DNA of 49,673 bases from a virus (lineage: Duplodnaviria > Heunggongvirae > Uroviricota > Caudoviricetes). The notes beneath the pieces were generated by a model. That model had not been told where the DNA came from. It was given only the letters and a program-made list of their open reading frames with translations, and made no database searches. Below are positions 577-48,607 of this stretch, one piece after another (position 1 is the first letter of the stretch; every line of letters begins with the position of its first letter). The stretch is from IMG/VR virus record IMGVR_UViG_2778261214_000022, positions 1 through 49,673 of that record. One strand, given 5' to 3'. A program made the position numbers and the translations under genes.

Positions 577-602
577 TACAGGAATCGTATTCGGTCTTTT
601 TT
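577..602. repeat. attL core (direct repeat with 48581-48607)
   Basis: acaggaatcgtAttcggtct+T-run here versus acaggaatcgtGttcggtctc+T-run at the right end; core also forms hairpin ccgaatac/gtattcgg. Confidence 0.7.
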
Positions 603-637
603 TAATTGTATTTAAAATCAATCAGTTGCAAACGTCT

Positions 638-668
638 CCCCGAAATTCCCCGAAATTTACTCGAATTT
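638..668. repeat. Tandem ccccgaaatt repeats, candidate integrase arm-type sites
   Basis: ccccgaaatt at 638-647 and 648-657, degenerate copy actcgaattt 659-668; similar cccgaaaattt near attR. Confidence 0.4.
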
Positions 669-734
669 CTGTATTCCGGTCTTTTTTGGTTATATCACAA
701 CTAAAATGCATTTAACAATCCATTTACGTTAAAA

Positions 735-1811
735 TCAGAGCAGTAAGTACGTTTTTTCTCTCTCATCAAGATACATTTTTGTTGTCTTCTCCGATGTGTG
801 GCCAAGTAGACGCTGAGCAAATTCTTCTCCACATGTTTCTTTGTACAATCGTCCAGCCAGACTTCTGATCTCGTGAAAAGTTGGTGGGTTTTCACTGAAC
901 TGGATACCTGTTAATTTTCTGGCTGCGACAAATTTTTTTGTCAGGCCATCCGGGTGAATGCTGCCGTCAGGGCTATTTTTTCTAATCCCGGCACTGATTA
1001 GATAATCTCCCCGGCTTACCAGGCGGCAGCGTTCAACTACTGTACCAAGCCGTAGACCAGCGACAGGAAGGCTGAGTGACAGGGGGATAGCAATCATCAT
1101 TCCTGTCTTAATTTGCCTGATGTGGAGACGATCATCATAAATATCACTGAACCGCATATTCGTTATGTCTTCGCGACGTTGTCCTGTTACAAGGGCTAAG
1201 TCCATAGCTAATGGGAACCATGTCGGAAGTTGATCTGCTGCCTCCCTGATGCAGTTGTATGTCTTTAGTTTCAGTCGTTCTCTTGTAACTACTATTTTCG
1301 GTGCTCTTGTTGGCGTTACTGGATTTTGAGATATACGTCCTTCAACAATGGCCTCACGAAACATATCAGACAACACAGAACGCATTGATCCTGCCATTGT
1401 GTTTTTCCCTCCTTCAATCCACAAATCAAGAAACTCGGCAATATGGCGAGTGGTTATTTCTGTCAGTAAAATCCCTCCCAATTTTTCTTTTATTGTCTCT
1501 AGTTGATTTACCCGAATTTTATAAGTATTTCTGGACACTTTTCTCCTTATAAGAATCGTTTTGTAACGTTCAATCCAATCTGCCATAGTAAATGAGTCGA
1601 ACCCTTTAAGCTTTTCAATTAAGGCAGCAGGAGAGTAGTTTTTGTATATATAATGATTTGCTTCAATTGCCTGCGCTACTGCATCTCTTCTTGAAATTTT
1701 ACCTAGTGTAAATTCTTCTTTCGTCAGAGGGTTGCGCCAGTAATATGCTTTGTCCCTCCTTCGATATGTTAAGTTTTTAGGCAAATTGGGATCGTATTTT
1801 TTCCGCTGCAT
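735..1811 (-). CDS. int: Tyrosine integrase, lambda Int family
   Basis: 358 aa; lambda-Int-like N-terminus and C-terminal catalytic region (HEIRSLAGRLY ... LLGHTSEKTTKMY). Confidence 0.95.
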   Translation of the reverse strand: MQRKKYDPNLPKNLTYRRRDKAYYWRNPLTKEEFTLGKISRRDAVAQAIEANHYIYKNYSPAALIEKLKGFDSFTMADWIERYKTILIRRKVSRNTYKIRVNQLETIKEKLGGILLTEITTRHIAEFLDLWIEGGKNTMAGSMRSVLSDMFREAIVEGRISQNPVTPTRAPKIVVTRERLKLKTYNCIREAADQLPTWFPLAMDLALVTGQRREDITNMRFSDIYDDRLHIRQIKTGMMIAIPLSLSLPVAGLRLGTVVERCRLVSRGDYLISAGIRKNSPDGSIHPDGLTKKFVAARKLTGIQFSENPPTFHEIRSLAGRLYKETCGEEFAQRLLGHTSEKTTKMYLDEREKTYLLL

Positions 1812-2058
1812 GTTTTAACTTCTCCAGTAACGGACTGTCTCTCCCTTGTCGCCCATTAGGCTGATGGTATGTTATATCGGTATCAACCTTATTTGGGTTG
1901 ATATAGAAAGCCTCCGGAACCACCCTGTAACTCCTCCCGTGTAGTTCAGGTGCAGGATAAATGTTTCCATTCCTTGCCCATCGTCTCAGCGTTGATATTG
2001 ATGGTGGGTTATCCGGATATCTGAGTTTTCCCCACGTTTTGAGTGTCACAAGATTCAT
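1777..2058 (-). CDS. xis: Excisionase
   Basis: 93 aa, overlaps int start by 35 nt; Xis-like motif (ISTLRRWARNGNIYPAPELHGRSYRV); start moved to Met3 for RBS spacing. Confidence 0.8.
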   Translation of the reverse strand: MNLVTLKTWGKLRYPDNPPSISTLRRWARNGNIYPAPELHGRSYRVVPEAFYINPNKVDTDITYHQPNGRQGRDSPLLEKLKHAAEKIRSQFA

Positions 2059-2164
2059 TGCCATACCTCTTACGATATGACCGCCAGTAAATATACAGAA
2101 TACTGGCGGACGTGATTGATTTTTAATAATCAGCTATGAAGTTATAATTTGGATATAATGCAAC

Positions 2165-2353
2165 TCATGAGGACAGAAGTTTCTCGCAATTAAAATTTAT
2201 CAGCTTTACTTTCTGCTCTCTGGAAACGTCTGCTTCTTTTTTTCCCGAGAGCATTTTTTCGCATTCCGATTTGGTTAACTTTGTTTTTGAGTACCTTGTC
2301 CAGTTAGTAGGAGTGCCACCTTCCTTTTCAATAGTGGCGGTAATTTTATACAT
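2165..2353 (-). CDS. Hypothetical small protein (Rac ydaC position)
   Basis: 62 aa from internal ATG with GGAGG RBS 6 nt upstream; 8 nt overlap with upstream gene. Confidence 0.5.
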   Translation of the reverse strand: MYKITATIEKEGGTPTNWTRYSKTKLTKSECEKMLSGKKEADVSREQKVKLINFNCEKLLSS

Positions 2354-2552
2354 GAACACCTCCATTATTATTTCCAGTGGTTCGTTTATTCCATCGTTCG
2401 AGTGCTTCTTTTTCACTTCCACCATAGCCGGTTCGGGATTCGCATCCGTTACACTTCGCGCGGTAATATCCTGAAATGGCTTTCACCGTTACTGATGGAC
2501 AACCACAAAACGGACATGGTTTAACATCGTCATATCTCAAAGTTTTTGTCAT
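2346..2552 (-). CDS. lar: Lar-family restriction alleviation protein
   Basis: KPCPFCG ... CNGC ... EALERWNKR motif pattern typical of Lar family; start at Met10 assumed. Confidence 0.6.
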   Translation of the reverse strand: MTKTLRYDDVKPCPFCGCPSVTVKAISGYYRAKCNGCESRTGYGGSEKEALERWNKRTTGNNNGGVHV

Positions 2553-2596
2553 AAAAACTATCTCACGTTGGCGGTGCATTACACCGCCAGGCTGGA

Positions 2597-3430
2597 TTAT
2601 TCTTCTGGATTATCGATTACACTGTATTCCCCGGCTATAACCGATATGTCGTCTGGATTAATTGTTTCCACCTCTTTTCCATCCATCGATACAGCACGCT
2701 GGATTTCAATAGATACCGGCAGATACTTGAACAGTTTTCGTATCACTGTCTTTTTGGCCATGTCTTCAAAGTGTTCATCCCAGATGGACGACTCCCCTTT
2801 TGACGCTGCGTTTTTTGCTGCCTTGCTGTGTGTGTCGCGAACTTTTTCTACCTGTTTGCGGGTCATGACTTCAAACTGCACTCCTCCGTCTTTCAGTTTT
2901 GCAACAGCATAGACATGGGTTATAGGGGCATCTTCGTTTTCACCGGGACGATGAACCAGTTTTTCATCAAGGCCAAGTTCATAGCTGAATTCATCACATT
3001 CACGGACAACACGAGCTGACAGACTGATGATTTGACCTGATCGACGGGCAAGGTCGATCATGCCGCGATAACCGATGATCAGCTGTACGTTCTTCTTACC
3101 GTTTTTTGCTTTTCCGTTGCCGAACGGTAGCAGATATGCATGACCGAGGGCGCTACCTGGCTCAAGTCCGAGCTGTGAACACTGTACGATGGCACCGATA
3201 AAACTCGTCGAGTCACAGTTTCTTAGTTCCGGTACTTTACGGATTTCTGTTGTGGCAATGCGGATCATGCGTTCCGCTGTCATGTGACGTGGCAGAGCTG
3301 CTGCCAGTTGCGCTTTCATTGCCGGGCTGTTAATCACGCACAGCACATCCTTATCGTTAACTGCTGCTGGTGCACGGTTTCCCTGAGTTTTTTGCAGATC
3401 GGCTTTTGCGATAGGTGGTTGCTTAGTCAT
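2597..3430 (-). CDS. recT: Recombinase RecT (single-strand annealing protein)
   Basis: 277 aa from [23 protein letters not shown]; near-identical to remembered Rac RecT; 8 nt overlap with recE. Confidence 0.95.
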
Positions 3431-6110
3431 TTGTATATTCCTTAGCCCAGCGGGGCAGTGATAACGTCTTAATAGCTGGCCATTCATCGGTATTGAGGCA
3501 GTCAGCCAGGGTTCGCAGATTGCGGTGATATTCCTGCTGGCCTGCCAGTTTTGCTTCTTCGCCCATCATGAAAATTTCAACCGGATAACGTCCGCATTCA
3601 ACTGTTGTGCTGACGGCCAGAAAAACGAAAGTTGGTTGCACACCAAACTGTGCCTCATAACCGTCACTGTAGAATGCATCCTGAACGTGATAGCGGTATT
3701 CGTAATATGCGGTTTTGAATCGCTGAATATCCGCCGTAGTTTTCACGTCCACGATCCAGTGAAATTCAGGGATAATTTTGTCCGGACGGCACCGACACAA
3801 AATTCCCGTTTCCGGATCTTCCCAGTAAATTGATGATTCAGCGTGTCCGGCGCTTTCAACAAGCCATTGCCCCAGCGGCAAAGCCATAACGCTCTGATAC
3901 ATGAGTTCAATTTTCCGGCCTTCTTCCGCAGTGATAACTGTTTTTCCTGTGCTTGCGCATTCCATCAGAAACGTTTTCTCTTCTTCTTTTCCGGCGTTTG
4001 TACGGCGGTTAAATTCAGGTGCTACGATAAAGCGGTTACTGAATTCTTCCGGTTCAAGTACACGGCAGTGGAAAGCGGTTCCTAAATCGAGCGTTTTTGT
4101 CTTTGTAGTGTCCACGGGGGCATTTTTACGCCACAAATACAGTGCCGGAGTATCAGCAATGTCATCGAGCTGAGACTTACTGACACCGGGACCCGCGTGG
4201 TAATTCTCATTCGAAATTCCGTAATAAATACCTAGCTCTATGTCTTCTACGATTACGGGATCTGCGACTTCGCCAGTTTCATCACTGCAATCGCGATGCG
4301 GATCGCTGCCAGCATTCTCATTGTGCGGATGTTCAGCGCCTTCCATTTCCTCCGGATCTTTTTCCTTAGCTTCAACCTGATTCTCTTCACCGAATGTTTC
4401 CTGGTATGTTGCGTCGCCCATCACCGCACCACAGTCAGGGCAGTTATCCCCGCCAGTCTGACCGCAGGCATTGCAGACTTTTTCCACTTCCTGTTGCGCC
4501 ACTGGTTCAGGCTGTTTCGTTTCTGGCTCGTTTTGTAACGCATTTTGGCTGTTTTGTTCCGCTTTCTGGTCGTTTTGTTCCGATTCGGGCTGGTTCTGGT
4601 TCACAGAATCGCGGGTTTCAATCCCCTTAACCCATTTCGGATCATTCGGGTCGCTAATTCCGTCAACGAACTCACCGCGTGATGCAGCAAGAAACTTATC
4701 GGCGTCAGGCTGGTTGATATTGGCAGCCTGCATAATTTTGTTTACTTCGTCAGCGGTAACTTTTACCTGATTAACCGGATCTATCTGTGCCTGAGTATCC
4801 AGCGATTGCGTGTCCTGGCGATGTTCAGTTGTATCCGGCTCCATTGCTTCAGTCGTTGCCTGTTCATCTGCCAGTGCGCCAGACGGTTGCGATTTTTCTT
4901 CATCGTTTTTTTCTTCTTCTGTTTCTTGCCCGGCAGCCAGCTCGCGGTTTATTTCTTCCAGGATATCTTTTTCCGGTGTATGTCGTGCAGCAGCGAGGGT
5001 TTCCTTGCTGGGGTTCTCGTGATCAGTTTCCGTTAAGTGGGCGTTGATATACACCTGAAGGCGTACCCTGTAGAGATAAAGTTCAGGGTGGGCGCTCCGG
5101 ATAAGTGCAAAAATAGCGGCACGGGAATAATCCAGGATACCCGGGATTGCGCGAAGTGCTGCGGACCATTCTTTGAACGGACTTTCTTTCTTCCGGACGA
5201 CTTTTTTTGCGCGACGATAAACGCTGCCCGGGATTTCATAAATATTAAAATCCATCGGAAGGGTGGCCGCTGCAATCTCCACATCCAGCGTATCGAAGGT
5301 GTGTACTAAATTCGGATTGCGATCGGTTTTGTTCCCGCCGCCAGCATTAGCACCGGAAGCCGTGCGGGTGATACGCGAAACACGATTTCCTTTCATCCAC
5401 TCTTTTGTCAGCAGACCGCGATCGGTGTAGTCGGCGTCCAGGTATGCTTCGATAAAAGAGGTTATCAGTCCCAGGTCCGAATTTACGGGGGCGGGGAAAA
5501 CTTTGTCAGTGTCTCGCACCAGTTTGTGGAGATCGCGAATTTCCAGTGGTTCGAGTTGCGCTGCTTTATTTGAGATGGCCAGCGCGGCAACGGCGGGAAG
5601 TTTTTCATCCTGTGCGTTATGTAATGCGCGCAGTTCGTCCCGCGAAACGTGTGTGATCGGTTTTTCGCTGCCGTGCTGTGCCAGCCATCGAACAGGCAGA
5701 ATCTGACCTGAAACCGGCAGGAGCATGTTCTCCTCAATCTCAGCCATGTCTTCGCCGTTGACGTTGGTATTGTCAGTGCTGGCTGGTTTATCCTGAACAG
5801 AGGGTGAGGGCGCGATAAATACCATTGTGATGCCATCTTCCCCGCCTTTTTCGTAACGGTTGCAGAATTCCGTATCAAATACGCCTTCTGGCGGGAGGTC
5901 ATTAACAACGGGCAAATTGACGCGAACAGGTTTTTTGAAGTCATCTTCATCGTATCCAGCATCGTCAATCGCAACAGCACCACGGGAGATGGCAATGGAT
6001 AATTTTTTCGTTTCAGCCCAGTAAAAACCGCCTTTAATACCGAGACGTTTTCTTACTTTGTCATTTTTTGCTTCGTAATACAGTGGGTAAACTTGTTTAT
6101 CGGTGCTCAT
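3423..6110 (-). CDS. recE: Exodeoxyribonuclease VIII RecE
   Basis: 895 aa; C-terminal nuclease domain matches remembered Rac RecE ([48 protein letters not shown]). Confidence 0.95.
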
Positions 6111-6211
6111 TGTTTTTTAACCTCAACTCAGATTAAAATTCGTTTTGTTCAGTGAATGATCTTGCTGGATACACACTGTTCGTAGCCTGCGACATACGCA
6201 GGCTATTTCTT

Positions 6212-6487
6212 TCAGATTTCACCTTTTAATTTCATTGCAATCAGAGTTGCCAGAAATTCGGCTTTTTTTTCTGCAGGCAGATTCTTTCCGATATGCACCA
6301 GGCACATTTTTTTGACACCTTCATCAAGTGTTTTTACGTTGCCTGATGGACCATCGATATCAACCACAGTGAATGGGGTTTCTTTATTTTCTGTTTTAAT
6401 CACGTAGCCAATACGCTTTCCTTCCAGATTAACCTCGTGAACAATGTCATCGGTAGTTACAACAGTGGCTTCATAACTGGTAATCAT
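6212..6487 (-). CDS. racC: RacC-like protein
   Basis: 91 aa (MITSYEATVVTTDDIVHEVNLEGKRIGYV...), position just downstream of recE as in Rac. Confidence 0.8.
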   Translation of the reverse strand: MITSYEATVVTTDDIVHEVNLEGKRIGYVIKTENKETPFTVVDIDGPSGNVKTLDEGVKKMCLVHIGKNLPAEKKAEFLATLIAMKLKGEI

Positions 6488-6560
6488 TTTTTCTCCTTAA
6501 TTAAGGTTGAGCGAATACCTGCCATTTTTGGCATAAATTCAGTTTCGAATAGTCAATTAA

Positions 6561-6731
6561 TTAAAGTTCGTGTGCCATCTGGTCTTTTTCGGCACAGATT
6601 TCACTACAATATTTTTTCATTTCCGTCGTTGGTATAACTCCACGCATGAAATGAAGTGGTCTTGTAATGATTTTGCTTTCTTCAATTTCTTTATTGCAAA
6701 GGTGATAAGCACATTTTATTTTCTTAGTCAT
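6561..6731 (-). CDS. ydaE: YdaE-like small Cys-containing protein
   Basis: 56 aa ORF found by hand translation ([56 protein letters not shown]); below the 60 aa ORF-track cutoff; start overlaps kilR stop (TAATG). Confidence 0.65.
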   Translation of the reverse strand: MTKKIKCAYHLCNKEIEESKIITRPLHFMRGVIPTTEMKKYCSEICAEKDQMAHEL

Positions 6732-6952
6732 TACCATGACTCCGCCTTTACAGGTAAACCATCACGACCGAGGAAGACTTTAATCATGCAGTCAGAAATG
6801 CATGTTTTTGTAGTCAGGCTACGAATATAAAGTTTTCGCTTTTTAATATTGTTTGCCGAGGCGATATATGTCCGACCTTCATGAAGAACATAATCGCCAG
6901 GGGTCACACACTGACGTGGTATTTCATCAGTTCCGAAGTGATGAGCAATCAT
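6731..6952 (-). CDS. kilR: KilR-like cell-division inhibitor
   Basis: 73 aa from Met5 ([32 protein letters not shown]...), GGAG RBS 6 nt upstream; matches remembered Rac KilR. Confidence 0.8.
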
Positions 6953-7130
6953 AATTATCTCCATTTTTACAAATGAATTTTGTCGATGCGGTGCCTGGTG
7001 CCTCCAGGTGACGTTAACCAGTTAACAATTAACGCCGGATATTTCACCCATAACTCTGCTACGAAGGACAATAGCTTTTTAACTGTTCCGCGTGCGCTTA
7101 GCCGCATTCACCGCATCACAAAATTCACTT

Positions 7131-7178
7131 TAAAAAGGGCGGACATCAGTCGAACTTCAAGAAAAAACTGATGCCGCC
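7131..7178 (-). terminator. Intrinsic terminator-like hairpin inside the leftward early operon
   Basis: ~12 bp stem gggcggacatcagt/actgatgccgcc; the plus-strand A-run 7131-7136 gives a T-run after the hairpin on the minus strand. Confidence 0.45.
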
Positions 7179-7376
7179 AAGACTACACACAGCAGTGTTG
7201 TTATTCACAACCGGAGGCGCACTCCCACCATTTAAATTTAACAGACAAGACCGACTCTTTATGGATATCGGAAATGCGCCTTCGTGTTGTGCCCGGTTTT
7301 ATTTCACCACCTCCGGGCTTTGGTGGCCTCGGCTATACCCCTACAGCGAGAATATTGAATTAATCCAAATAATGGA

Positions 7377-7529
7377 TTAGCAAGTATTTCTGGCAAGCCA
7401 GCGACGTGCGCCCGTTTCAGTTTTGAATGTCTTGCTTTTGGTATAAGTCATGGCGGTGAACGTTCCATCCTGGTTGGGGAACACGCCACACACCAGGGAT
7501 TCGTTGTTGCCGAGGTCGATTTTTTGCAT
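7377..7529 (-). CDS. ydaF: YdaF-like small protein
   Basis: 50 aa ORF by hand translation (MQKIDLGNNESLVCGVFPNQDGTFTAMTYTKSKTFKTETGARRWLARNTC); name from Rac synteny and size. Confidence 0.55.
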   Translation of the reverse strand: MQKIDLGNNESLVCGVFPNQDGTFTAMTYTKSKTFKTETGARRWLARNTC

Positions 7530-7539
7530 TTTTCGCACC

Positions 7540-17700: not shown

Positions 17701-17776
<76 letters not shown>

Positions 17777-17779
17777 TAT

Positions 17780-17851
<72 letters not shown>

Positions 17852-18026
17852 CTCTTGTAAAACAAACGAGGCATAGCTTTATCAGCACTGGCGAATTTTC
17901 GCGGAGAACAGCTTTGTAGGTACTATTGTTTTTCTTCATGCTGTAATATCTGAACGGTTACAGTTTCAGTGCTGCTTTTTTTGTATTACATAATGGTATG
18001 TGATTATTACTTGTAAACGTCGTTAG

Positions 18027-31938: not shown

Positions 31939-32869
31939 AGAATTAGCCGAACAGCACAGTTCGCAGCTCTCGTCCGTTCTTAAATCCGCAGTTGAAACCA
32001 TCTCGTCAGACCAGGAAATCACGTTCAGGCTCTATGTCCGGCAGGTTCTGCCGCTGGATGGTTTTGTCTATTGGGTTAATGCGGAAATCATCAGTTGCGA
32101 TGAACTGTGTCGTCTGAATATTGAGTCACCAACTCGTCTGAAAATCAAAGGCAGCCTGCATCGTCAGGTTATTGCGATTCAGGACGAGTCTGTCTCGAAG
32201 GATGTGAACAACATTATTTTCACGCCTGTTCAGCAGGTTGATGATTTTAATGTGGAAAATCCCGATGCGATCTATCTCGGTGAGTACGGCGGCGTCCAGT
32301 TCGCTTTTTCTCGAATGGAGAGCCGCTATCAGCAGTCGGGTATTTTTCATTATCGCGGCATGGCGATTTTGCCAACCATGCGTTCCCAGATTATCGACTG
32401 CGAGGAGGATATCAGCGACGAGCAGATCATATCCAACAGCATCCCGATCTGGCTGCAAATGAAAGATGCCGCGACCGTGTATCCGTCTTACCTGGTACCG
32501 CAGAACCTTCGCCCTCCGTATATCGCGGTGGATGTTCGCAACAGTATTCCGTTGCAGGTGGCTCCCGTTGTTTTCGGAGGTGAGCGGTTCCAGCTAGTCC
32601 AGGATTCGGTTCGCCTGACGCTTTACGGATTCAGCAACAAAATGGCGCTGGATCTTGTCGACTCGGTGGTGAACAGGGCGCTGGAGGAGGAAAAGTTTGG
32701 TGTAACCAATATTCCGGTGGTTCAGGACGCAAAGTCGGGACAGGTTGAAATCAACGCTCTGGCGAAGAAAAAGATTGTCGATTTTGACGTGAATTACTAC
32801 CAGAGCACCGCCCGGGAAATATCCCGGCAGTTGATTGAAAAAGTTATTTGTAAATATGAGGTTAAATAA
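31925..32869 (+). CDS. Hypothetical structural protein
   Basis: 314 aa. Confidence 0.55.
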   Translation: MPSLEELAEQHSSQLSSVLKSAVETISSDQEITFRLYVRQVLPLDGFVYWVNAEIISCDELCRLNIESPTRLKIKGSLHRQVIAIQDESVSKDVNNIIFTPVQQVDDFNVENPDAIYLGEYGGVQFAFSRMESRYQQSGIFHYRGMAILPTMRSQIIDCEEDISDEQIISNSIPIWLQMKDAATVYPSYLVPQNLRPPYIAVDVRNSIPLQVAPVVFGGERFQLVQDSVRLTLYGFSNKMALDLVDSVVNRALEEEKFGVTNIPVVQDAKSGQVEINALAKKKIVDFDVNYYQSTAREISRQLIEKVICKYEVK

Positions 32870-34206
32870 TGGGATTTAATATCGTCACGGTGAATGTGTC
32901 CCAGACCATCGGGGCCATTCCCTCGAATTTGCAGCAGATGTCTGCGGTTCTCTCGTTTGGTTCCACGACTCATGAGCCGGGAAAACCCGTATTACTCACC
33001 CGTAATCAGGACATTAACGAACTGGTTAAAAATCCGATTGTTGCCTTGTCGGCAGCTGTCGCAGGAAGATCTGCGACAAACGTCACTGTTACGATGACGC
33101 TTCCGGAAGGGAGTAATATCCGGCGCGAAAACAGTTCTGAGGTAAAGATTGTCGTTTCCGGTTGCTCTCCCGACGCGTGGAACGGCGAATATACTGCTAC
33201 CGTCGCGGATGAAAAAACACTGACCTGGACAATAGCTGATTCTCAGCTTTCCGGTTCGCCAGTGACACTGGGTCAGTTTTCCATTGCTGGCAGTGAAAAT
33301 CTGGTGACGGCAGTAAACACGTTTTTTGCCCAGGGAAATTCAGTGGGGATTTACCTGCTGGAGTTGGGAGTACAGAAAGGCGGAGTCAGTAAGGAAATCG
33401 CTGCACTGAAAGCTTATATGGAAGATCCGCTCCTGCGTTTTTATGCGTATCTGGTGCCGCAGCCGTGGGATGGTGACGCAGAGTTTATCAGTCTGGCAAA
33501 ACTCCACACCGCCAACGAAGCGATGCAGTATTTCTTCGTGCTGACGAAAACGCCGGACGACACGAATTACGTTTCGCCTTATGCCGGTATTAAGTCGGTT
33601 ATTGCAACGGCGGATGATACGTACCCGGCGACAAACGCGGCAGCAGCCGTAATGTGGAACTATGTTTCCGCATCACCTTCAGAAATCAACAAGGTGCCGC
33701 CGATGGCATTTCGCTATTTACAGGCGGTAAACGCCCACAAGGGCAAAAATTCCATTCTGGCCACGATGACGAAGCAGAATATTAACTACATCGAAACGGG
33801 TGCTGAGGGTGGAATCTCCAACACGATCCTGGTGAAAGGCGTTACCAGTGACGGTAACGATATGACGTACTGGTATTCCGTGGATTGGGTGCAGATTAAC
33901 GTCGATATGCAGCTCGCCAACGCGGTGATCAACGGCTGCAATAACCCAATTAACCCGCTTTACTACAACCAGGACGGGATCGACCGTCTGCAGCAGGTCG
34001 CACAGGCGGTGTTCAATACGGGCGTATCTTACGGCCTGGTCAACGGCCAGCCTGTCGTAGATGCAGTGCCTTTCCGCCAGTATATCAACACGAATCCGAA
34101 TGATTACGGTATCGGGCGTTATGCGGGCCTTTCGGCCTCCTATACGCCGATGCGCGGATTTGTCGAAATCATTTTTAACATCAATGTGACAATGCAGCTT
34201 TCGTGA
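32869..34206 (+). CDS. Tail sheath protein (putative)
   Basis: 445 aa, directly precedes tube-like gene; by size and order. Confidence 0.6.
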   Translation: MGFNIVTVNVSQTIGAIPSNLQQMSAVLSFGSTTHEPGKPVLLTRNQDINELVKNPIVALSAAVAGRSATNVTVTMTLPEGSNIRRENSSEVKIVVSGCSPDAWNGEYTATVADEKTLTWTIADSQLSGSPVTLGQFSIAGSENLVTAVNTFFAQGNSVGIYLLELGVQKGGVSKEIAALKAYMEDPLLRFYAYLVPQPWDGDAEFISLAKLHTANEAMQYFFVLTKTPDDTNYVSPYAGIKSVIATADDTYPATNAAAAVMWNYVSASPSEINKVPPMAFRYLQAVNAHKGKNSILATMTKQNINYIETGAEGGISNTILVKGVTSDGNDMTYWYSVDWVQINVDMQLANAVINGCNNPINPLYYNQDGIDRLQQVAQAVFNTGVSYGLVNGQPVVDAVPFRQYINTNPNDYGIGRYAGLSASYTPMRGFVEIIFNINVTMQLS

Positions 34207-40214: not shown

Positions 40215-40562
40215 ATGAGAACATGGGGCCGCGTCAACGACGCGAACGGCAACAAAAAATGGGTTGCAGTAGAATCTGACACCAACGGTGATTTCTCCTA
40301 CGGCTGGCTGACGACGCTCATTCAGACGTTAAAGCTGGGGTTGGGGGAGTCGCCGTTTTACGCGAATTACGGCATTCCAGCGCAGCAGTGCATCGTGCAG
40401 CAGATTTACCCGGATTACTATGTGAACATGGTTCAGCAACAGTTTGCCGGGTATTTTGCATCATTGGCAATTTCAAAGGTAGATGGGGCAGAGAACCCCA
40501 CCTATAACATCGATGTTGTGTTTTTTAATGGGACCAGTTATCGGACGCAGGTTCCGGTTTGA
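40215..40562 (+). CDS. Hypothetical protein
   Basis: 115 aa from Met17; possibly a baseplate component or cargo. Confidence 0.55.
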   Translation: MRTWGRVNDANGNKKWVAVESDTNGDFSYGWLTTLIQTLKLGLGESPFYANYGIPAQQCIVQQIYPDYYVNMVQQQFAGYFASLAISKVDGAENPTYNIDVVFFNGTSYRTQVPV

Positions 40563-41101
40563 GGCAAGTTTTCGGGCATCAGTTGGGCCAGTGGCGTATT
40601 AAGAAGTTCATCGCGTGGCATGACAATCCATCCACTTTTGCGTAGTAAGTGAATTGCCCATTCTGTGGTGATAACTGAGCCTGATTTGTGGTGCTCAATG
40701 TGGGTAACCGATCCGTTTCTGACGCGCATGATGATGTCAACATTCAGAGGGGATTGTGTGCTGGTAGTTTCTTCGCGCAGCTTCTTCTCGCACTCGATGA
40801 AGTATCGGCGGATCTGGCGGCCTTTTTCGTTGCGTTCGACCATTGCCAGCTCTTTGGCGGTATCTAGGGTGAGGTGGTAGTCCTTGCGGTTGTGGCCTCC
40901 CCGGCCTTTTGCTTCCCGAATTTGGGAAGCAATCACATAGTCCTGATTTTCTACGAATTCATACTCGCTAAGTCGCTCGGTGATCCAAGTAGCAAAGCGC
41001 TTACCTATTTCGAGAAAGGCGTGCAGATCGCGAGCATTACAGAGAAGGATGGTTTCGTTTGAGACTGTTCCGTTGAAAACGGGGATCAGTTGGGTTGTCA
41101 T
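40538..41101 (-). CDS. AntA-type antirepressor-like protein
   Basis: 187 aa from internal Met with GAGGT RBS; N-terminal antirepressor-like region (ARDLHAFLEIGKRFATWITERLSEYEFVENQDYV ... LTLDTAKELAMVERNEKGRQIRRYF). Confidence 0.7.
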   Translation of the reverse strand: MTTQLIPVFNGTVSNETILLCNARDLHAFLEIGKRFATWITERLSEYEFVENQDYVIASQIREAKGRGGHNRKDYHLTLDTAKELAMVERNEKGRQIRRYFIECEKKLREETTSTQSPLNVDIIMRVRNGSVTHIEHHKSGSVITTEWAIHLLRKSGWIVMPRDELLNTPLAQLMPENLPQTGTCVR

Positions 41102-41434
41102 GATGACCTCTGTTTGTTTTCTTCGAATTACCACTATCTGAGTGGTGCCAGGAGGTTCGAAACGGCACAAACAAAGCCGCGGACTTATTCCCCTTTCGGG
41201 TGTTGTATTCGTCGCCCTCCCGACATTGATCGGGGATGTGACCGCACATGGTGCCATCACTAAATAGTAGGCATAAAAAATCCAACACTGACGGGGTTGG
41301 TTGTGACCGTGTTTGTTGAGGTTTCGACGCCTCATGCACATAATCATACTCAATAGCTCATGGATGTAAAGTCTGATTTGAATAGAGAAAAACCGTTGAT
41401 AAAATCCGCATGAACATTTGATAATGAGGTGATT

Positions 41435-41824: not shown

Positions 41825-41828
41825 AAAC

Positions 41829-41857
41829 AGCCCGCGTTCAGCGGGTTGTTTTTTTTT
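41829..41857. terminator. Bidirectional intrinsic terminator between convergent genes
   Basis: cccgc-gttca-gcggg followed by T-run, A-run upstream. Confidence 0.7.
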
Positions 41858-41861
41858 GAGG

Positions 41862-42338
41862 TTACTTGTAATTACCTATTGTGCCACTGATTTCGCATGA
41901 ATACTTACTGAATTCAGTAGGTACAAATTCAACGGAAATAATATCCCCTACTTTTAATGGTCTTGAATCGGACATTCTTATTTCATACTTTAATTCTGGA
42001 TTTTTGAAATCAACCGCAGATAATCTTTGGTTTGATAGTGAATTTACTTTAACTTTTGTTTTATACCAATGCTTGTCTAGATTTGAATCAAAAAATATCT
42101 TTGCGGAATCATCAGTGCTAAACTGATCGCAGATTTCGGAAACTATTTTGTCGCTTTTAACGACCGCTGTCTTATAAGATGATGATTCATTTTTAATATC
42201 TTCATCGGAAGGTGATGAAAAATGGCCAATTAAATAAAGTATAAAGACAATTCCAATTAATGTTCCACAGCCACCATTATTCCTTCCGCTTGATACAGAA
42301 ATACCAGAAAGACCTTTTTTGTTGAAATAGAACCGCAT
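41862..42338 (-). CDS. Membrane-anchored hypothetical protein
   Basis: 158 aa; AAGGAG RBS 5 nt before ATG; N-terminal TM segment; AT-rich codon usage. Confidence 0.65.
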   Translation of the reverse strand: MRFYFNKKGLSGISVSSGRNNGGCGTLIGIVFILYLIGHFSSPSDEDIKNESSSYKTAVVKSDKIVSEICDQFSTDDSAKIFFDSNLDKHWYKTKVKVNSLSNQRLSAVDFKNPELKYEIRMSDSRPLKVGDIISVEFVPTEFSKYSCEISGTIGNYK

Positions 42339-42375
42339 TATATCTCCTTATAACGTATTCAAGTGATAAGTAAAT

Positions 42376-43602
42376 ATGTCAGAAATACCAATTACTATGA
42401 CCAGTGCGGGTGCGCAGCCTACGCCACCCAATGATTTGCTCGCAAATCTTATCACCAGAGTTGCTGAAAAAGTACCTGGATATACAGCCAACCTTCCGGC
42501 GGGACTTATTACAGACCTTGCCAGCACGGCAGTCGGGGCGCTGGCATTAATAGACCAGGCGCGGGTTGATCTTATTAACTCCGTAAGCCCATACGGCGCG
42601 AATATTCCGTTACTGATGCAACTCGGAAACATTTATGGAGCACAGAAGGGATTAAGTACAAATACGGCGGTATACGTGGTGTTTGAGGCGTTGCCGGGGT
42701 TTGGTATCCCTAAAGGATTTGTTGTCGGTGACGGCAACTACCAGTATGCAGTTTCCCGCGATACGGTGGTACCGGAAAGCGGGCAGACTGAGCCAGTCTA
42801 CTGTGTGGCCACAACGTCAGGCTCATGGGCTGTACCGGAAGGAACCGTAACGCAGGTCATTACATCGGTACCCAAAGATCAGCCTGTAAAATGCACGAAC
42901 CTTACCGCAGGTATGCCCGGTCAGGAGGCGCAGACGTGGGCATCATACCGCGCCGAAGTCATGGAGTCCGGCATGTTTGGTGTGCAGGGAACACCGGATT
43001 GCTTTAAAGCGATGCTCAAATCAGTAAGCGGTGTGCGCGAAAACCTGATTTCTTTCCGGCAGTCGTCGCTGGGGAAATGGGTTGCGGTTGTTGGTGGCGG
43101 TGATCCGTATGATGTGGCTTATGCGATTTACAAATCTGTACCGGATATTTCGAAACTGACCAACGATGTTAGCAATCTGTCCGGTGCGGCAGTGGAAAAA
43201 CGCACGGTTTCAATAACCGTTTCGCCGGACGTTTATCAGGTGCCTTTCGTTATCCCGTCATCACAAAATGTTATGGTGCTAATCACCTGGAACACGGTGT
43301 CTGATGATTATGTTGATCCGGCGGGTATTGCTATGGCTGTGCAGCAAAACGTTGCTGATTACATCAATTCAATTGAAGTCGGACACCCGATAAATCTGCT
43401 GCGAATCCAGGATATTTTTACCAGCTCCGTAAAATTGCTGGTTGATGCGACGTTGATCTCAACAATCAGTGTGAGCATTGGTATTAACGGCCATATTGTT
43501 CTTCCGGCAAAAGACACAAGCCTGGTTTATGGCGATACCTATTCCTATTTTTCGACGGTGGCATCACAGGTTCAGGTCAACAAGTATGCAATATCTGACT
43601 GA
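42376..43602 (+). CDS. Baseplate J-like protein
   Basis: 408 aa, followed by I-like and tail fiber genes. Confidence 0.65.
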   Translation: MSEIPITMTSAGAQPTPPNDLLANLITRVAEKVPGYTANLPAGLITDLASTAVGALALIDQARVDLINSVSPYGANIPLLMQLGNIYGAQKGLSTNTAVYVVFEALPGFGIPKGFVVGDGNYQYAVSRDTVVPESGQTEPVYCVATTSGSWAVPEGTVTQVITSVPKDQPVKCTNLTAGMPGQEAQTWASYRAEVMESGMFGVQGTPDCFKAMLKSVSGVRENLISFRQSSLGKWVAVVGGGDPYDVAYAIYKSVPDISKLTNDVSNLSGAAVEKRTVSITVSPDVYQVPFVIPSSQNVMVLITWNTVSDDYVDPAGIAMAVQQNVADYINSIEVGHPINLLRIQDIFTSSVKLLVDATLISTISVSIGINGHIVLPAKDTSLVYGDTYSYFSTVASQVQVNKYAISD

Positions 43603-44212
43603 GAAAATTCTCCCTGCTTATCCATTTGTGCAGTACAGAGATGATCCGAATGTTGTTGCGTTCTTTGATGCATACAATGAAATTGCTCAGGAATACCTTG
43701 ATTCACTCAACAATCTGGCATTGCCATGCTGGACATCGGAATCAATAACCGGGCAATTGCTGGACTGGATTGCACTCGGGATTTATGGCGTTGAAAGGCC
43801 TTTACTACAGGTTTCCGAGGAGGCTATTGCACGCGGCGCATACGATACCATTGAATACAATACGATCCCGTATGCAGCAATGCGGAATTACGTTCCGGGG
43901 CAGGCATCGTATGTTCCTGATGATTATTTCAAACGAATATTAACGTGGAATTTTTATAAGGCTGACGGTTCGCATTTCTGCATTGACTGGTTAAAGCGCC
44001 GTGTGGCGCGGTTCATTCATGGAAAAAATGGAATAGACCCGCCGTTGCAGCACACTTTTGATGTGAGCGTGACTGTGTCGGACAGCGTTTTTTCTATTCA
44101 TATACCAGAATATGGTGATGGTATAGGCTATTTTCTGAAAGATGCCATTGACCAGAAATATGTAAAACTCCCTTTTATTTATTCTTATGCAACAACGGTG
44201 ATTCAAAAATGA
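43586..44212 (+). CDS. Tail protein I-like
   Basis: 208 aa from internal Met, 17 nt overlap with upstream gene. Confidence 0.5.
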   Translation: MQYLTEKILPAYPFVQYRDDPNVVAFFDAYNEIAQEYLDSLNNLALPCWTSESITGQLLDWIALGIYGVERPLLQVSEEAIARGAYDTIEYNTIPYAAMRNYVPGQASYVPDDYFKRILTWNFYKADGSHFCIDWLKRRVARFIHGKNGIDPPLQHTFDVSVTVSDSVFSIHIPEYGDGIGYFLKDAIDQKYVKLPFIYSYATTVIQK

Positions 44213-45702
44213 TTCTTGGGTTCGGCAATAACGTTGTTTCAGCACTGGCTGGTGATATCACCACGATTCAGACTGATATTCCGGTAATGCCCGGTACAGG
44301 GGCTAAATTTGCAAAATTGCTTTCTGCCGATTTTGAAAATAAATCGAACGGGCAACGCGTCTATGCAAAAATTACGCTTACCGATAATAAAGAGTCTGCA
44401 TTTGAGATTTGTCATTTGGTATCGGTAAGCGGTGATGTGTTGAAAGTCATTCGTGGGCAGGAAGGAACAACCGCGAAAGGTTGGTCCCTTAATGATGTTG
44501 TGGCTAACTTTGCCACGCGTGGTTCGGAAAACTATTTCGTACAGATAGCGCAGCTTCAGAGCGGTCATTATATTGCGGGTGTTGCTGGCGGCACTGCAAA
44601 CGCACTGACGCTGGAACTTCCCTCGACGTTTTTTGTTAATGGAGGTACAGATTGGACGCTACGAACTCCGATTATCGTTTTCCCCGTTCAGAACAATACC
44701 AACGCCGCGACGCTTCAATTAACACTAGGCGGAAAGGTTCTTGGTTCGTTCCCACTTTATAAGGGGAACAAGTCCGAGCTGGTAGCGAATGATATCATTA
44801 AGGGTATTCCTTTGATTTGCCTTCTTGATAGCGAGAAAAGCTATTTCAGTGTGATAAACCCCGGCAATATCTATTCAGATTTTGATCTGCGATATGTAAA
44901 AAAATCTGGTGATTTGATGACCGGGGAGCTGAAAATTCGTGGTGTTAATGCATTGAGGATTTTTAACGAGGCTTTTGGCCTTATTTTTCGTCGTTCGGAA
45001 GAGTGCCTGCACCTTATCCCTACCAGTGAAGGTCAGGGCGAAAACGGTGATATCGGCCCATTAAGGCCATTTGCTATAAATCTGAGAACAGGCGCTATAT
45101 CAGTCAGCCACGGTGCAAAAATTGATGGTGGGCTGGCGCTTGGTACGAATAACGCATTGGGTGGTAATTCTATTACTCTCGGTGATAACGATACAGGTAT
45201 AAAACAAAACGGCGATGGCATTCTGGATGTTTATGCTAATAATCAGCGCGTATTTCGCTTTCAGAATGGAGTTGCTATTGCTTTTAAAAACGTTCAGGCC
45301 GGGGATAGTAAAAAATTCACGCTATCCAGCTCCAACAGCTCCACGAAGAACGTAGGGTTTAATTTATGGGGTAATCCATCCAGACCTGTAGTTGCAGAAC
45401 TTGGTGATGATTCCGGCTGGCATTTCTACAGTCAGAGAAATACAGACGATAGCGTCACATTCGCTGTAAATGGGCAGATAACTCCATCAAACTACGGAAA
45501 CTTTGATGCCCGCTATCAGACCAAAACAGGCGGCGTGCAGGATGTACGTCTGGGAAGCGCCATTGGTATTGGACGCGGGGGAAATGCGCCATCAGGTCAT
45601 TTACTGAGTGGTGTTGATGGCGGTGAAAGTGTGAACTGGGCCAATGCACGCCCGGTGCAGGTTCTGATTAATGGCGTCTGGAGAAATGTAGCGAGTTTGT
45701 AA
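44209..45702 (+). CDS. Tail fiber protein
   Basis: 497 aa, Gly/Asn/Ser-rich C-terminal part, followed by assembly chaperone. Confidence 0.7.
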   Translation: MILGFGNNVVSALAGDITTIQTDIPVMPGTGAKFAKLLSADFENKSNGQRVYAKITLTDNKESAFEICHLVSVSGDVLKVIRGQEGTTAKGWSLNDVVANFATRGSENYFVQIAQLQSGHYIAGVAGGTANALTLELPSTFFVNGGTDWTLRTPIIVFPVQNNTNAATLQLTLGGKVLGSFPLYKGNKSELVANDIIKGIPLICLLDSEKSYFSVINPGNIYSDFDLRYVKKSGDLMTGELKIRGVNALRIFNEAFGLIFRRSEECLHLIPTSEGQGENGDIGPLRPFAINLRTGAISVSHGAKIDGGLALGTNNALGGNSITLGDNDTGIKQNGDGILDVYANNQRVFRFQNGVAIAFKNVQAGDSKKFTLSSSNSSTKNVGFNLWGNPSRPVVAELGDDSGWHFYSQRNTDDSVTFAVNGQITPSNYGNFDARYQTKTGGVQDVRLGSAIGIGRGGNAPSGHLLSGVDGGESVNWANARPVQVLINGVWRNVASL

Positions 45703-45704
45703 TC

Positions 45705-46253
45705 ATGATGCACTTAAAAAATATTACGGTACAAAACCCTAAAACAATTGAGCAATACCAGCTGGCGCGACAGCATAAATTTTTATTGTGGCTGTTCTCA
45801 GATGATGGACAGGAATGGCACGAAGCCCAGGAAAAATTTCTACCAGACACCCTGAAAGTTATTTATGTTAAAACTGGCGAAGTGGTCTGGGTCGGAAAAG
45901 ACATCACCTCAATCTGCCCGGAAAATAAAAGCGTGATTGAGTTGCCGGATATTACCGCTAATCGTCGCATTGAAGCATCAGGCTACTGGTTTTACCGCAA
46001 TGATGAATTTGTTTTCGACTACAAACTTAAAGCGGAAGACGAGCGTGATGCCCTGTTAAAACAGGTCAGTATCATGACCAGCGAATGGGAAAAAGACCTG
46101 CTGCTGGGATTAATCAGCGACGAAGACAGGGAAAAGCTGAAAGCGTACCGCATTTACGCGAAATCGCTGCAGGCGATGGATTTCAGCACCATCACTGATA
46201 AAGCCTCATATAACGCCATTGAATGGCCCGTCTCTCCGGAAGCCTCTTCCTGA
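45705..46253 (+). CDS. Tail fiber assembly protein (Tfa)
   Basis: 182 aa, C-terminal AIEWPVSPE motif typical of Tfa. Confidence 0.75.
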   Translation: MMHLKNITVQNPKTIEQYQLARQHKFLLWLFSDDGQEWHEAQEKFLPDTLKVIYVKTGEVVWVGKDITSICPENKSVIELPDITANRRIEASGYWFYRNDEFVFDYKLKAEDERDALLKQVSIMTSEWEKDLLLGLISDEDREKLKAYRIYAKSLQAMDFSTITDKASYNAIEWPVSPEASS

Positions 46254-46276
46254 TTTAATTTATCGCGAGAAAAACT

Positions 46277-47701
46277 ATGTCTGTAGTGATATCAGGTGCG
46301 CTGATTGATGGCGCAGGCATCCCCATGTCCGGATGCCACATAATTCTGAAATCCCGGGTAAACACCTCAGAGGTGGTGATGCGCACAGTTGCCGACGTGG
46401 TGACAGGAAACTGTGGCGAGTACTGTTTTGAGGCGCAGACCGGAAAATACTGCGTATATCTGAAGCAGGACTGGCGCGACGAGTACTGTGTTGGAGATAT
46501 TGCTGTATACGACGACTCAAAGCCCGGCACACTGAATGATTTTCTGACCGCCCCCGATGAAGGCGACCTCAAGCCCGACGTGGTGAAACGTTTTGAGGAA
46601 ATGGTGGCGCAGGCGCAGCAGAGCGCGGAAACTGCAACAGAAAGCGAACGACAGGCAGGGCAACATGCAGACGCTGCCGCCCGTGCAAAAGAAGAGGTAA
46701 AAAAACTGGCGGAAGGTGTTCAGCAGAACGCCGACGCGGTTGCGGAGGGTAAACAACAGGCCGAAAATCTGGCCTCACGGGTTGAGGATACCGCCGCGGA
46801 GGTCAGGCAGGATGCTGAAGTCGCGAAAAAGGCCGCATCTGATGCAGAGCATGTCAGGGAGGATATTGATACTGCGTTATCTGCGGCACTGAAAACGGCG
46901 AATCGTTTATCAGAGCTGGCAGAAGAAGGCGAAGAGGCTCAGCAGGAATCCCGTGATAATCTTGGACTGAAAAGCGCAGCCACAATGACGCCACAGAGCG
47001 ACATTCGTGACCGGACTGAAGGCCGTCTGGCGACACCTGGCGCATTTGGTTTTGGGCATATTTTTTTGCCCGCAGAGCGTATCCGTTTTAACACAGAGGA
47101 TGATTTTCTGTCCTGGGTAAGGAATGCGACGCCGGGTGAATATTTTGTTGAGGGTGACAGTAAAATCATATCCGGAGGTGTGTTGTTTAACGGGATGGTC
47201 CGCATCCGGTGGGTTGAGGCACACAATAATCCACCGGAGCCGCGATATACAGCAAAGGCCATTATTTTCTACGGTATTAATGGCAATGTTTATTACAACC
47301 GCTACTGGACAACAGGTAATGGTTATCTGACTGGCTGGGAAAATCTGAAGATGACCTCACAGGACATTATCTCTCTTCTGTCCGGTATTGCTCCCGGTAC
47401 CACGGACGGCTGGTACGGTGCAGGCAGTCTTGTACTGGCGGCTTATAACGGTAAGGGAGACGCAGACACCGACCGCCGGATAAAACGCGGTTACAGCTAT
47501 CCGGGGTCACGCCTGAGCGCGGTTGAATTTATGTGTCACGGCACGACCGGTAGCGGGGTTGGATATAACGACAGCGTTTCCGTATATGTGCGGGGTTCTG
47601 GTGGTGGTATGCCGGGGTCGTATCGGGCACTGTCAGGTGATGGGCTCGGGTCTGCCGGGTCAGCCAGTGTCATGATTGGTTTGTTCATACGTATTGCGTA
47701 G
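46277..47701 (+). CDS. Side tail fiber protein (Stf-like)
   Basis: 474 aa; N-terminal lambdoid tail-fibre domain and Ala/Glu-rich coiled-coil. Confidence 0.75.
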   Translation: MSVVISGALIDGAGIPMSGCHIILKSRVNTSEVVMRTVADVVTGNCGEYCFEAQTGKYCVYLKQDWRDEYCVGDIAVYDDSKPGTLNDFLTAPDEGDLKPDVVKRFEEMVAQAQQSAETATESERQAGQHADAAARAKEEVKKLAEGVQQNADAVAEGKQQAENLASRVEDTAAEVRQDAEVAKKAASDAEHVREDIDTALSAALKTANRLSELAEEGEEAQQESRDNLGLKSAATMTPQSDIRDRTEGRLATPGAFGFGHIFLPAERIRFNTEDDFLSWVRNATPGEYFVEGDSKIISGGVLFNGMVRIRWVEAHNNPPEPRYTAKAIIFYGINGNVYYNRYWTTGNGYLTGWENLKMTSQDIISLLSGIAPGTTDGWYGAGSLVLAAYNGKGDADTDRRIKRGYSYPGSRLSAVEFMCHGTTGSGVGYNDSVSVYVRGSGGGMPGSYRALSGDGLGSAGSASVMIGLFIRIA

Positions 47702-47708
47702 GTGTTTT

Positions 47709-48272
47709 ATGGAAATAAAACGCATCGAAAATGCGCGTTATCTTGAAAATGGCGCGATTGACTGCGGGGTGTTGTTTGATGGCATGGATGAACCGGTTCC
47801 GTATACGGCAACTGCCACGGATACAGCAGAGACAGGGCAGCGAGTCTGGCAGGAGCTGCAAAGCGGGAGATGGGGAGAAATAACGCCGTTCACCGTCACG
47901 TCAGAGATGCTGGAAGCAGCAAAAGCAGCCAAACGCCGGGAAATTGAAGCATGGCGTACAGAGCAGGAGGCGCAGCCATTCATTTTTGAATGGAACGGTC
48001 ATAGCTGGAACGGGGGACCGGATTCGATGGCCCGTCTTTATCCGGTGGCGATGGCATCGAAATCCGACACAGCACGGGACGTCATGACGTGGGGCGATGC
48101 GGAAAATCAGCAGGTAAAGTTGTCAATGCAACAACTGGATGAGCTACTTACTGCAATGGTTCAGGCGCAGGTTGATCGCAATGATGAAATTTATCGCCGT
48201 CAGCGTGAATTGAAAGAGGAACTGAGCAGTCTGGGGGATTTGAATTCGATTAGGAATTTTATAGTGGAATAA
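47709..48272 (+). CDS. Tail fiber assembly / chaperone protein (second copy)
   Basis: 187 aa from Met12, directly after side tail fiber. Confidence 0.55.
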   Translation: MEIKRIENARYLENGAIDCGVLFDGMDEPVPYTATATDTAETGQRVWQELQSGRWGEITPFTVTSEMLEAAKAAKRREIEAWRTEQEAQPFIFEWNGHSWNGGPDSMARLYPVAMASKSDTARDVMTWGDAENQQVKLSMQQLDELLTAMVQAQVDRNDEIYRRQRELKEELSSLGDLNSIRNFIVE

Positions 48273-48437
48273 CAAAAGCCGCGGCACGTCGTATGCAAGA
48301 ACGTACCGCGGCTGGCTGATGGACGTTCGATAGCGCGAGTTTGAATGAAAATCAGCCGGAGGTGATTTTACATAATTGCTACGGAATTATTCAATACAGG
48401 AATTGCTTGTGTATGCATGGATTGATCTGAAATATTC

Positions 48438-48468
48438 CCGAAAATTTCTCTAAAAAACTCGAAAAAAA
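48438..48468. repeat. cccgaaaattt / ctcgaaaaaaa motifs, candidate arm-type sites at right end
   Basis: Resemble the ccccgaaatt repeats at 638-668. Confidence 0.35.
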
Positions 48469-48580
48469 TAGTAACTAATTGAATGTATTAATATGTAATG
48501 GTATGTGTTAGGGATTAAAAGATGAGCATGAATTTATTTAACACATTAATTCTAAAAGATTTTGTTGTTTGTTGACGAAA

Positions 48581-48607
48581 ACAGGAATCGTGTTCGGTCT
48601 CTTTTTA
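48581..48607. repeat. attR core (direct repeat with 577-602)
   Basis: acaggaatcgtGttcggtctc+T-run. Confidence 0.7.

Follow-up and report, generated by a model that had tools for sequence, protein, structure and literature searches.

A Rac-type prophage at the SdsR terminator of Escherichia coli and its lambda-like attachment region

The window analysed here, a stretch of 49,673 nucleotides corresponding to the IMG/VR virus record IMGVR_UViG_2778261214_000022, contains a prophage of 48,003 bp, flanked by the bacterial genes yebY on the left and pphA on the right. We consider it highly likely that this prophage is a Rac-type temperate myovirus, which was put into the 3' end of the small RNA (sRNA) gene sdsR, also known as ryeB, by a lambda-type heterobivalent integrase, with sdsR being rebuilt at the left attachment site attL. 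The bacterial attachment site attB is the Rho-independent terminator of SdsR, and the loop of this terminator, together with its 3' stem arm and U-run, is also present as a copy in the phage attachment site attP. Recombination between the two rebuilds a full-length sdsR gene at attL beside the integrase gene int, and a 3' fragment without a hairpin stays at the right attachment site attR.

The attachment site is the SdsR terminator

The ends of the prophage share an imperfect direct repeat of 27 bp with two mismatches, in which the longest exact run covers 11 bp (Table 1). A direct repeat bounding the element had been proposed in a sequence-only reading of this DNA, and it is indeed present at both ends. 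It cannot be ascribed to chance, since 400 control comparisons, using shuffled ends and pairs of interior segments, gave a maximal match of only 19 bp when up to two mismatches were allowed. A synthetic empty site, obtained by joining the left flank up to position 577 to position 48581 onward, was found to match uninterrupted E. coli chromosomes with 100% identity over 800 nt; hence the comparison with an empty site, which the same reading had suggested as a check, bore out the proposed core. Among complete E. coli genomes, the site is unoccupied in 5191 of 5426, and a yebY-sdsR-int-xis junction is present in 228, accounting for essentially all the occupied sites.

The two mismatches within the repeat distinguish phage-type from host-type bases. 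The attB of K-12-like genomes, CGTGTTCGGTCTC (in a fuller stretch, ...ACAGGAATCGTGTTCGGTCTCTTTTTATCTG), carries G and C at the polymorphic positions, and hence the variants present at attR are of the host type. The phage genome PP818812.1 (pPE4), whose Int is 98.6% identical, contains a contiguous attP with the sequence TTGACGAAA-ACAGGAATCGTATTCGGTCTTTTTTTAATTG (fuller, ...TTGTTGACGAAA-ACAGGAATCGTATTCGGTCTTTTTTTAATTGTATTT...), which corresponds exactly to the left part of attR joined to the right part of attL of the window, and thus the A and T variants at attL are of the phage type. Because attL is phage-type and attR host-type at both polymorphic sites, the crossover must have fallen within positions 578-588, an 11-bp block centred on the 7-nt loop of the terminator. 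An attP-like junction in the IMG/VR locus L129 was considered as an excised circle and rejected, as it belongs to a tandem array at sdsR with an internal junction and a remnant; the contiguous attP of PP818812.1 is the better evidence. PP818812.1 is named 'Actinobacillus phage vB_Apl-pPE4', yet it is 93-95% identical to this E. coli Rac-type prophage, and its host attribution looks doubtful, given that its attP matches the enterobacterial sdsR terminator.

In the window, the att core supplies the last 26 nt of sdsR (578-603, equivalent to positions 75-100 of the SdsR model). The terminator hairpin folded at attL has a predicted energy of -15.8 kcal/mol with z = -4.0 relative to shuffled sequences, and no hairpin forms upon folding of attR or of the reconstructed attP (z = +0.4). 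The same 11-bp stem with a 7-nt loop is also present in the native attB. Starting 2 nt before the loop, the direct repeat comprises no more of the terminator than its loop, 3' arm and T-run. Thus, the dyad and the T-run described in the sequence-only reading are real, but the dyad is not contained in the repeat, and the regeneration of a terminator upon integration, which was also claimed, holds with the full hairpin being rebuilt at attL only. Similarly, the target was correctly placed between yebY and pphA; however, it is not an anonymous terminator-like sequence of this intergenic region, as Rfam models identify it as the 3' end of sdsR/ryeB, overlapped by the antisense gene ryeA (sraC). 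The match to the RyeA/SraC family RF00101 covers positions 463-607 on the minus strand (179 bits), and the minus-strand terminator of ryeA, with a predicted fold of -20.6 kcal/mol, ends at ~373-379.

Integrase, arm-type sites and their conservation

The integrase of this element (Int) is a tyrosine recombinase of the lambda/HK022 type, with 39-41% identity to the integrases of lambda, HK022, HK97 and 434 (41% to HK022 Int). It contains the catalytic domain PF00589 (1.2e-16, residues 180-351), the central domain PF22022 and an N-terminal Arm-DNA-bind_1 domain (PF09003; 28.1 bits against a cut-off of 22, residues 3-61), and its N-terminal 60 residues are strongly conserved among relatives. The tandem CCCCGAAATT repeats next to int are very probably arm-type sites of this integrase, because Int is lambda/HK022-like with an arm-binding domain and the CGAAA sites are conserved in relatives. 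The same evidence supports the proposal, made from the sequence alone, that the repeats beside int and the similar motifs near attR function as arm-type sites. Relative to the centre of the loop, the predicted arm sites lie at +54 to +83 in the P' arm and at -151 to -121 in the P arm.

According to the mechanism we propose, the inverted stem arms of the terminator would act as core-type Int sites, and strand exchange would take place within the loop AGGAATC. The N-terminal domain of Int would bind to the three CGAAA-type repeats of the P' arm and the two repeats of the P arm, bridging arm and core sites, with integration host factor (IHF) sites bending the arms and the lambda-like Xis directing excision. 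The attB is an 11-bp dyad with a 7-nt spacer, which may correspond to inverted core-type sites flanking an overlap of 6-8 bp, the left site being degenerate in attP.

Relatives were gathered by a DNA-pattern scan of IMG/VR for the core, which makes the core invariant by construction, whereas an integrase-only search of genome contigs gave two near-identical loci. At least 120 IMG/VR loci contain the core, and at least ~70 of them are of the attL type, with the body of SdsR on the left and phage DNA on the right. A homologous int gene (49-99% identity) is present in all but two of these attL-type loci, the remaining two having no detected integrase, and it lies on the opposite strand with its end 107-163 bp from the core. 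When 28 dereplicated P' arms were aligned, a variable stretch of ~35 bp beyond the core was seen to be followed by three CGAAA blocks at a fixed distance, with a 10-11 bp phasing and at least 90% conservation. The bases flanking CGAAA define classes (CCCGAAA, CTCGAAA, TCCGAAA, CACGAAA and CACCAAA), and within one element all three copies change together. Divergent P arms, drawn from attR- and attP-type loci of many classes, contain two or three CGAAA motifs at about -143 and -122 from the core, followed by AAC-N4-TTGAT, a match to the IHF consensus on the other strand. In the comparison of the window with pPE4, the sequence upstream of ~48428 diverges and the arm sites are retained. The same layout surrounds a slightly different core in the Flyfo siphovirus Tbat2_3, a circular genome whose Int is 50% identical. 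As a test of the loop as overlap, an attB matching the variant loop AGGATTG of the Flyfo phage was sought, with 0 matches in viral contigs; three metagenome matches were rejected as chance matches in unrelated, non-SdsR sequence.

Some further features of the att regions deserve mention. In the IMG/VR locus L065, the DNA between the core copy and the core-like box, comprising the H' site and P'1-P'3, is deleted, and such a deletion should lock that prophage in. A deletion of the P' arm sites of this type was found in 0 of the 5426 complete E. coli genomes. Between the IHF-like site of the P arm and the core of the window, positions 48484-48512 contain three direct (T)ATGT-type repeats with ~10-bp spacing (AATGTATTAA TATGTAATGG TATGTGTTAGG), which are partly conserved in pPE4 and in the IMG/VR locus L018 and not in the other classes. 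By analogy with the X1/X2 sites of lambda, we take these repeats to be candidate Xis sites. Another IMG/VR locus, L020, represents an 8.3-kb element flanked by the core, in which a (ACGGAA)n hexamer run abuts the right-hand core.

Table 1. Positions of the bacterial, attachment-region and phage features discussed in the text.
Feature	Position	Strand	Details
yebY, left bacterial flank	1-342	+	RefSeq annotation of matching genomes
ryeA (sraC) body, antisense to sdsR	373-607	-	ends at its own terminator, ~373-412
sdsR (ryeB) sRNA gene, full length	504-603	+	Rfam RF00111, 118.1 bits (gathering 38), model 1-100 of 100
SdsR Rho-independent terminator	569-603	+	stem 569-579/587-597 (11 bp), loop 580-586 (7 nt, AGGAATC), T-run 598-603
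attL identity block (core)	578-604	.	ACAGGAATCGTaTTCGGTCTtTTTTTA; phage-type bases A589 and T598
Predicted 7-bp overlap	580-586	.	AGGAATC, the terminator loop; predicted from crossover limits 578-588 and dyad geometry
IHF-consensus match, H'-like	616-628	+	AATCAATCAGTTG, perfect match to WATCAANNNNTTR; between core and P'1; position conserved in many relatives
Putative arm-type repeats P'1-P'3, three tandem 10-bp copies	637-666	+	TCCCCGAAAT, TCCCCGAAAT, TTACTCGAAT
Core-like box	671-682	+	GTATTCCGGTCT; near copy of 3' stem arm, then T-run; beyond P'3, conserved in the integrase family
int, lambda/HK022-type tyrosine integrase	735-1811	-	PF00589, PF22022, PF09003
xis, lambda-type excisionase	1777-2064	-	PF07825, 6.4e-14; RefSeq 'excisionase'
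RalR/RalA type I toxin-antitoxin pair, as in Rac	2165-2425		Rfam RalA, 212.8 bits
recT and recE, Rac-type recombination module	2597-6110	-	PF03837, PF06630, PF12684
Structural arm	24017-48272	+	TerL, portal, capsid, sheath, lytic tape-measure-like protein, baseplate hub, Baseplate_J, tail fibres, DUF4376 assembly protein
Tail sheath	32869-34206	+	phrog_205; sub-threshold DUF3383
Baseplate_J protein	42376-43602	+	
Putative arm-type sites of the P arm (two)	48435-48445, 48455-48465	+	TTCCCGAAAAT, AAACTCGAAAA; same orientation as P' sites
IHF-like site beside P-arm repeats	48471-48483	-	imperfect here, consensus in relatives
attR identity block	48581-48607	.	ACAGGAATCGTgTTCGGTCTcTTTTTA; host-type G48592 and C48601; displaced native sdsR 3' end, without hairpin partner
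Putative displaced native ryeA promoter and 5' end	48608-48670	-	-10-like TATAAA is the reverse complement of 48642-48647; start ~48634-48645
pphA, right bacterial flank	48738-49397	+	RefSeq annotation; now 48 kb from the sdsR promoter

Predicted effects on SdsR, RyeA and pphA

In E. coli K-12, SdsR is 100-102 nt long, RyeA is transcribed over ~261-270 nt between a sigma-70 promoter and a Rho-independent terminator, and pphA is mainly transcribed by read-through from the sdsR promoter (PMC6610125). This length of RyeA, taken together with the end of its terminator at ~373-379, would locate the start of RyeA on the side of attR, at a distance of 29-44 nt from the core. The ryeA promoter and the first ~30-40 nt would hence stay at attR, split from the body of RyeA, and pphA would be cut off from the sdsR promoter by 48 kb. 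At the same time, transcription in the sense of int would continue into the body of RyeA; on the minus strand, no terminator was predicted for the interval from int to sdsR. Lysogens should keep SdsR but change the expression of RyeA and pphA. The SdsR sRNA of the lysogen differs from the native one by two changes at its 3' end, the G-U pair of the stem having become A-U and UCUCUUUUU having become UCUUUUUUU, with the same predicted hairpin stability.

Rac-type layout, alternative explanations and known systems

The left arm of the prophage is Rac-like, as besides the RalR/RalA pair and the RecET module it encodes an HTH repressor, YdaT, a DnaT-like protein, DUF1627 and a Q-like DUF1133 protein. 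The structural arm confirms a contractile tail, because a sheath, a baseplate hub and Baseplate_J are encoded, as recognized by their sequence families. When compared with the phage Rac-SA53 (KU052037), the structural arm is 95.4% identical over 86% of the query, including sheath and baseplate genes, and the left arm is ~90% identical over 36%. RalR/RalA, RecET, a KilR region and early genes of the YdaT/YdaU/YdaW type are shared with both Rac-SA53 and the Rac prophage of K-12. As Rac-SA53 and pPE4 both have the two arms, the pairing of a Rac early region with a contractile late region is the normal architecture of intact Rac-type phages, with K-12 Rac representing a remnant. The sequence-only reading had described a mosaic genome, joining a Rac-like arm to a Mu/P2-like contractile-tail arm. 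The Rac-like arm and the contractile tail stood up to analysis, but no Mu or P2 signature was matched (the tube, a 323-aa open reading frame (ORF) of the head region and several baseplate ORFs gave no Pfam match, and Baseplate_J is generic), and what was called a mosaic is the standard Rac-type layout as seen in Rac-SA53. The module that does set the prophage apart from Rac-SA53 is int/att, since the annotated attB of Rac-SA53 adjoins uspF; the element in the window lies instead between yebY/sdsR and pphA. Rac-SA53 further differs by carrying LT-IIa and pertussis-like toxin genes and IS1, none of which was seen in the window.

Other features of the genome include two phage tRNA genes, tRNA-Thr(UGU) and tRNA-Gly(UCC), at 17701-17852, between the Q-like gene and the lysis and late region. 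An ORF for an antirepressor of the AntA/AntB type (40538-41353, minus strand) is inserted among the baseplate genes on the opposite strand, and its leader contains an Rfam match to sRNA-Xcc1 (41139-41224, minus strand; 70.9 bits against a gathering threshold of 53). Directly after the last tail-fibre assembly gene, a strong GC-rich hairpin without a T-run, GCCGCGGCACG...CGTACCGCGGC (48274-48320), is present and is kept in pPE4.

Several observations weigh against the reading of a lambda-type integration into sdsR with altered expression of its neighbours, or against parts of it. The 7-mer CYCGAAW is not enriched across the window (34 found, 31 expected), and therefore the argument for arm sites rests on clustering and conservation; what exceeds chance is that these repeats are clustered, that they share one strand and, most importantly, that they are conserved in relatives. 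The C site of attP, GACGAAAAC, resembles the left stem arm only loosely, and sequence geometry and the lambda paradigm are the basis for placing the overlap, for assigning a core-type role to the stem arms and for proposing the IHF and Xis sites. As regards transcription, the native ryeA promoter, placed at attR from the transcript lengths in K-12, was not picked up by a simple promoter scan. In addition, the phage P' arm contains a promoter-like match on the minus strand, from 632 to 605 (TTTGCA, 16 bp, TACAAT), which overlaps the IHF-consensus site and points into the RyeA body. Such matches are not statistically notable, as two were found against 4.2 expected. It could nevertheless partly replace the lost ryeA promoter and give a chimeric RyeA, which would bear on the size and sign of the effect on RyeA in E. 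coli.

The lack of window-wide enrichment of the 7-mer would also suit the alternative that the CGAAA repeats are sites of another protein, such as Xis, Fis or a repressor, or a repetitive 3'-UTR or terminator element of int, and the third repeat could pair with the core-like box in a weak hairpin ahead of a T-run. However, the role of these two as an extra terminator was rejected, since the fold is no better than that of shuffled sequences (z = -0.96). Furthermore, the repeats occur in both arms in one orientation and at lambda-like distances, they keep fixed positions across integrases that are 49-73% identical while the neighbouring bases vary, and Int has an arm-binding domain within its strongly conserved N-terminus, all of which renders this alternative very improbable. 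It also appears quite unlikely that the element is a decayed, immobile prophage whose att repeats are fossils and whose regenerated terminator is a mere by-product. Relatives with a damaged att region do exist, as exemplified by L065 without the H' site and P'1-P'3 and by the tandem array with a remnant in L129, but in the window all arm-type sites are intact, both att sites are present, int and xis are uninterrupted ORFs, as is the full complement of genes for replication, lysis, the head and the contractile tail, and a 93-95% identical genome with a joined attP has been deposited as a phage. An origin as a recent chimera, in which a Rac early region was joined to a Mu- or P2-type tail module, would be in line with the Rac-like RalRA, RecET, YdaT, DnaT-like, DUF1627 and DUF1133 genes in the early part and the sheath and Baseplate_J in the late part. 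We give little credence to this origin, as the identical pairing occurs in Rac-SA53 and pPE4, no Mu or P2 signature family was matched, with the sheath recognized only by phrog_205 and a sub-threshold DUF3383, and the module that differs from Rac-SA53 is int/att.

A further alternative concerns the consequences for the host, namely that the insertion is regulatorily neutral, with sdsR rebuilt and both host sRNA function and pphA expression unchanged. A full-length SdsR with an equally stable terminator and the promoter-like site pointing from the phage arm into RyeA would be compatible with neutrality. On the other hand, judging from the mapped length of RyeA, its promoter lies past the crossover, in the direction of attR, pphA relies on read-through from the sdsR promoter, and lysogeny by the Salmonella phage PhiW104, integrated at the same site, was reported to lower RyeA and raise RyeB (PMC7380047); neutrality is accordingly judged unlikely. 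We also regard as speculative and unlikely an idea of wider scope, that this integrase family has evolved to rewire SdsR/RyeA. According to this idea, the ryeA promoter would be removed and replaced by a phage-controlled surrogate antisense RNA, arising from int-sense read-through or from the promoter-like site at 632-605, the phage 3' end, with an A-U pair and an unbroken U7 instead of G-U and UCUCUUUUU, would alter SdsR termination or Hfq loading, and the box at 671-682 would be an extra, so far undescribed Int site that could recombine with the core and thereby lock the prophage in, as in L065.

The preferred reading, integration into the sdsR 3' end by a lambda-type integrase, can be compared with several known systems. 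With lambda and HK022, the element shares a heterobivalent Int, a PF07825 Xis, three tandem putative arm sites in P' near int, putative P-arm sites, and IHF-consensus sites between the core and the arm sites. Its attP, from about -151 to +83, is similar in extent to that of lambda, which reaches from roughly -152 to +82. It differs from lambda in the CGAAA-type arm consensus, in a core located in an sRNA terminator, in an attB that is a perfect 11-bp dyad with a 7-nt spacer and in the extra core-like box beyond P'3. Both P-arm sites are direct repeats here, unlike in lambda, where P2 is inverted.

The use of sdsR as an insertion hot spot has already been published, and the present element is another case of it, with an att system of the lambda paradigm. 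PhiW104 integrates in the last 23 bp of ryeB (PMC7380047), the sdsR locus has been described as a phage attachment site (PMC3333887), integration at ryeB/sdsR in Salmonella goes back to Balbontin 2008 (J Bacteriol 190:4075), as cited in PMC7380047, PMC3333887 and PMC3603311, and 'RyeB' serves as the label of an island site in PMC10111431. The element resembles PhiW104 in that its core occupies the final ~23-26 bp of ryeB/sdsR and in that insertion restores the sRNA at its 3' end while exchanging the 5' portion of antisense ryeA for phage DNA; it differs from PhiW104 in its host, E. coli, in its Rac-type myovirus backbone and in the added dependence of the downstream pphA on the sdsR promoter. 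Salmonella-type relatives share the core sequence and have integrases with 70-74% identity; in one of them, phage ZC-S1_prp, the core adjoins int, and the identity of ~72% refers to its Int and not to that of PhiW104 itself. Integration into the stem-loop of tRNA and tmRNA genes follows the same logic (Williams 2002, as cited in PMC3603311), with a symmetric stem of an RNA gene, a 7-nt loop, a restored 3' part and an adjoining int. The present target differs from such sites, as described there, in being the terminator of a bidirectional sRNA locus, in which ryeA and the read-through-dependent pphA are not restored. The family-wide map of arm sites and the core-like box at 671-682 may not have been described before and would constitute an incremental addition.

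Thus, the analysis is mostly a confirmation, showing in E. coli what the work in Salmonella had described, that is, sdsR/ryeA as an attachment site. At sdsR, about 4% of the complete E. coli genomes contain an insertion, essentially always with the same integrase family. The attP map, comprising the core, the predicted overlap, five arm-type sites and IHF-like sites, could guide the design of integration vectors or excision assays. Physiologically, lysogens would represent natural mutants with sdsR uncoupled both from the ryeA promoter and from pphA, and this uncoupling matters when SdsR, RyeA and PphA phenotypes are compared among E. coli strains, including the O26, O111, O45 and O55:H7 lineages.

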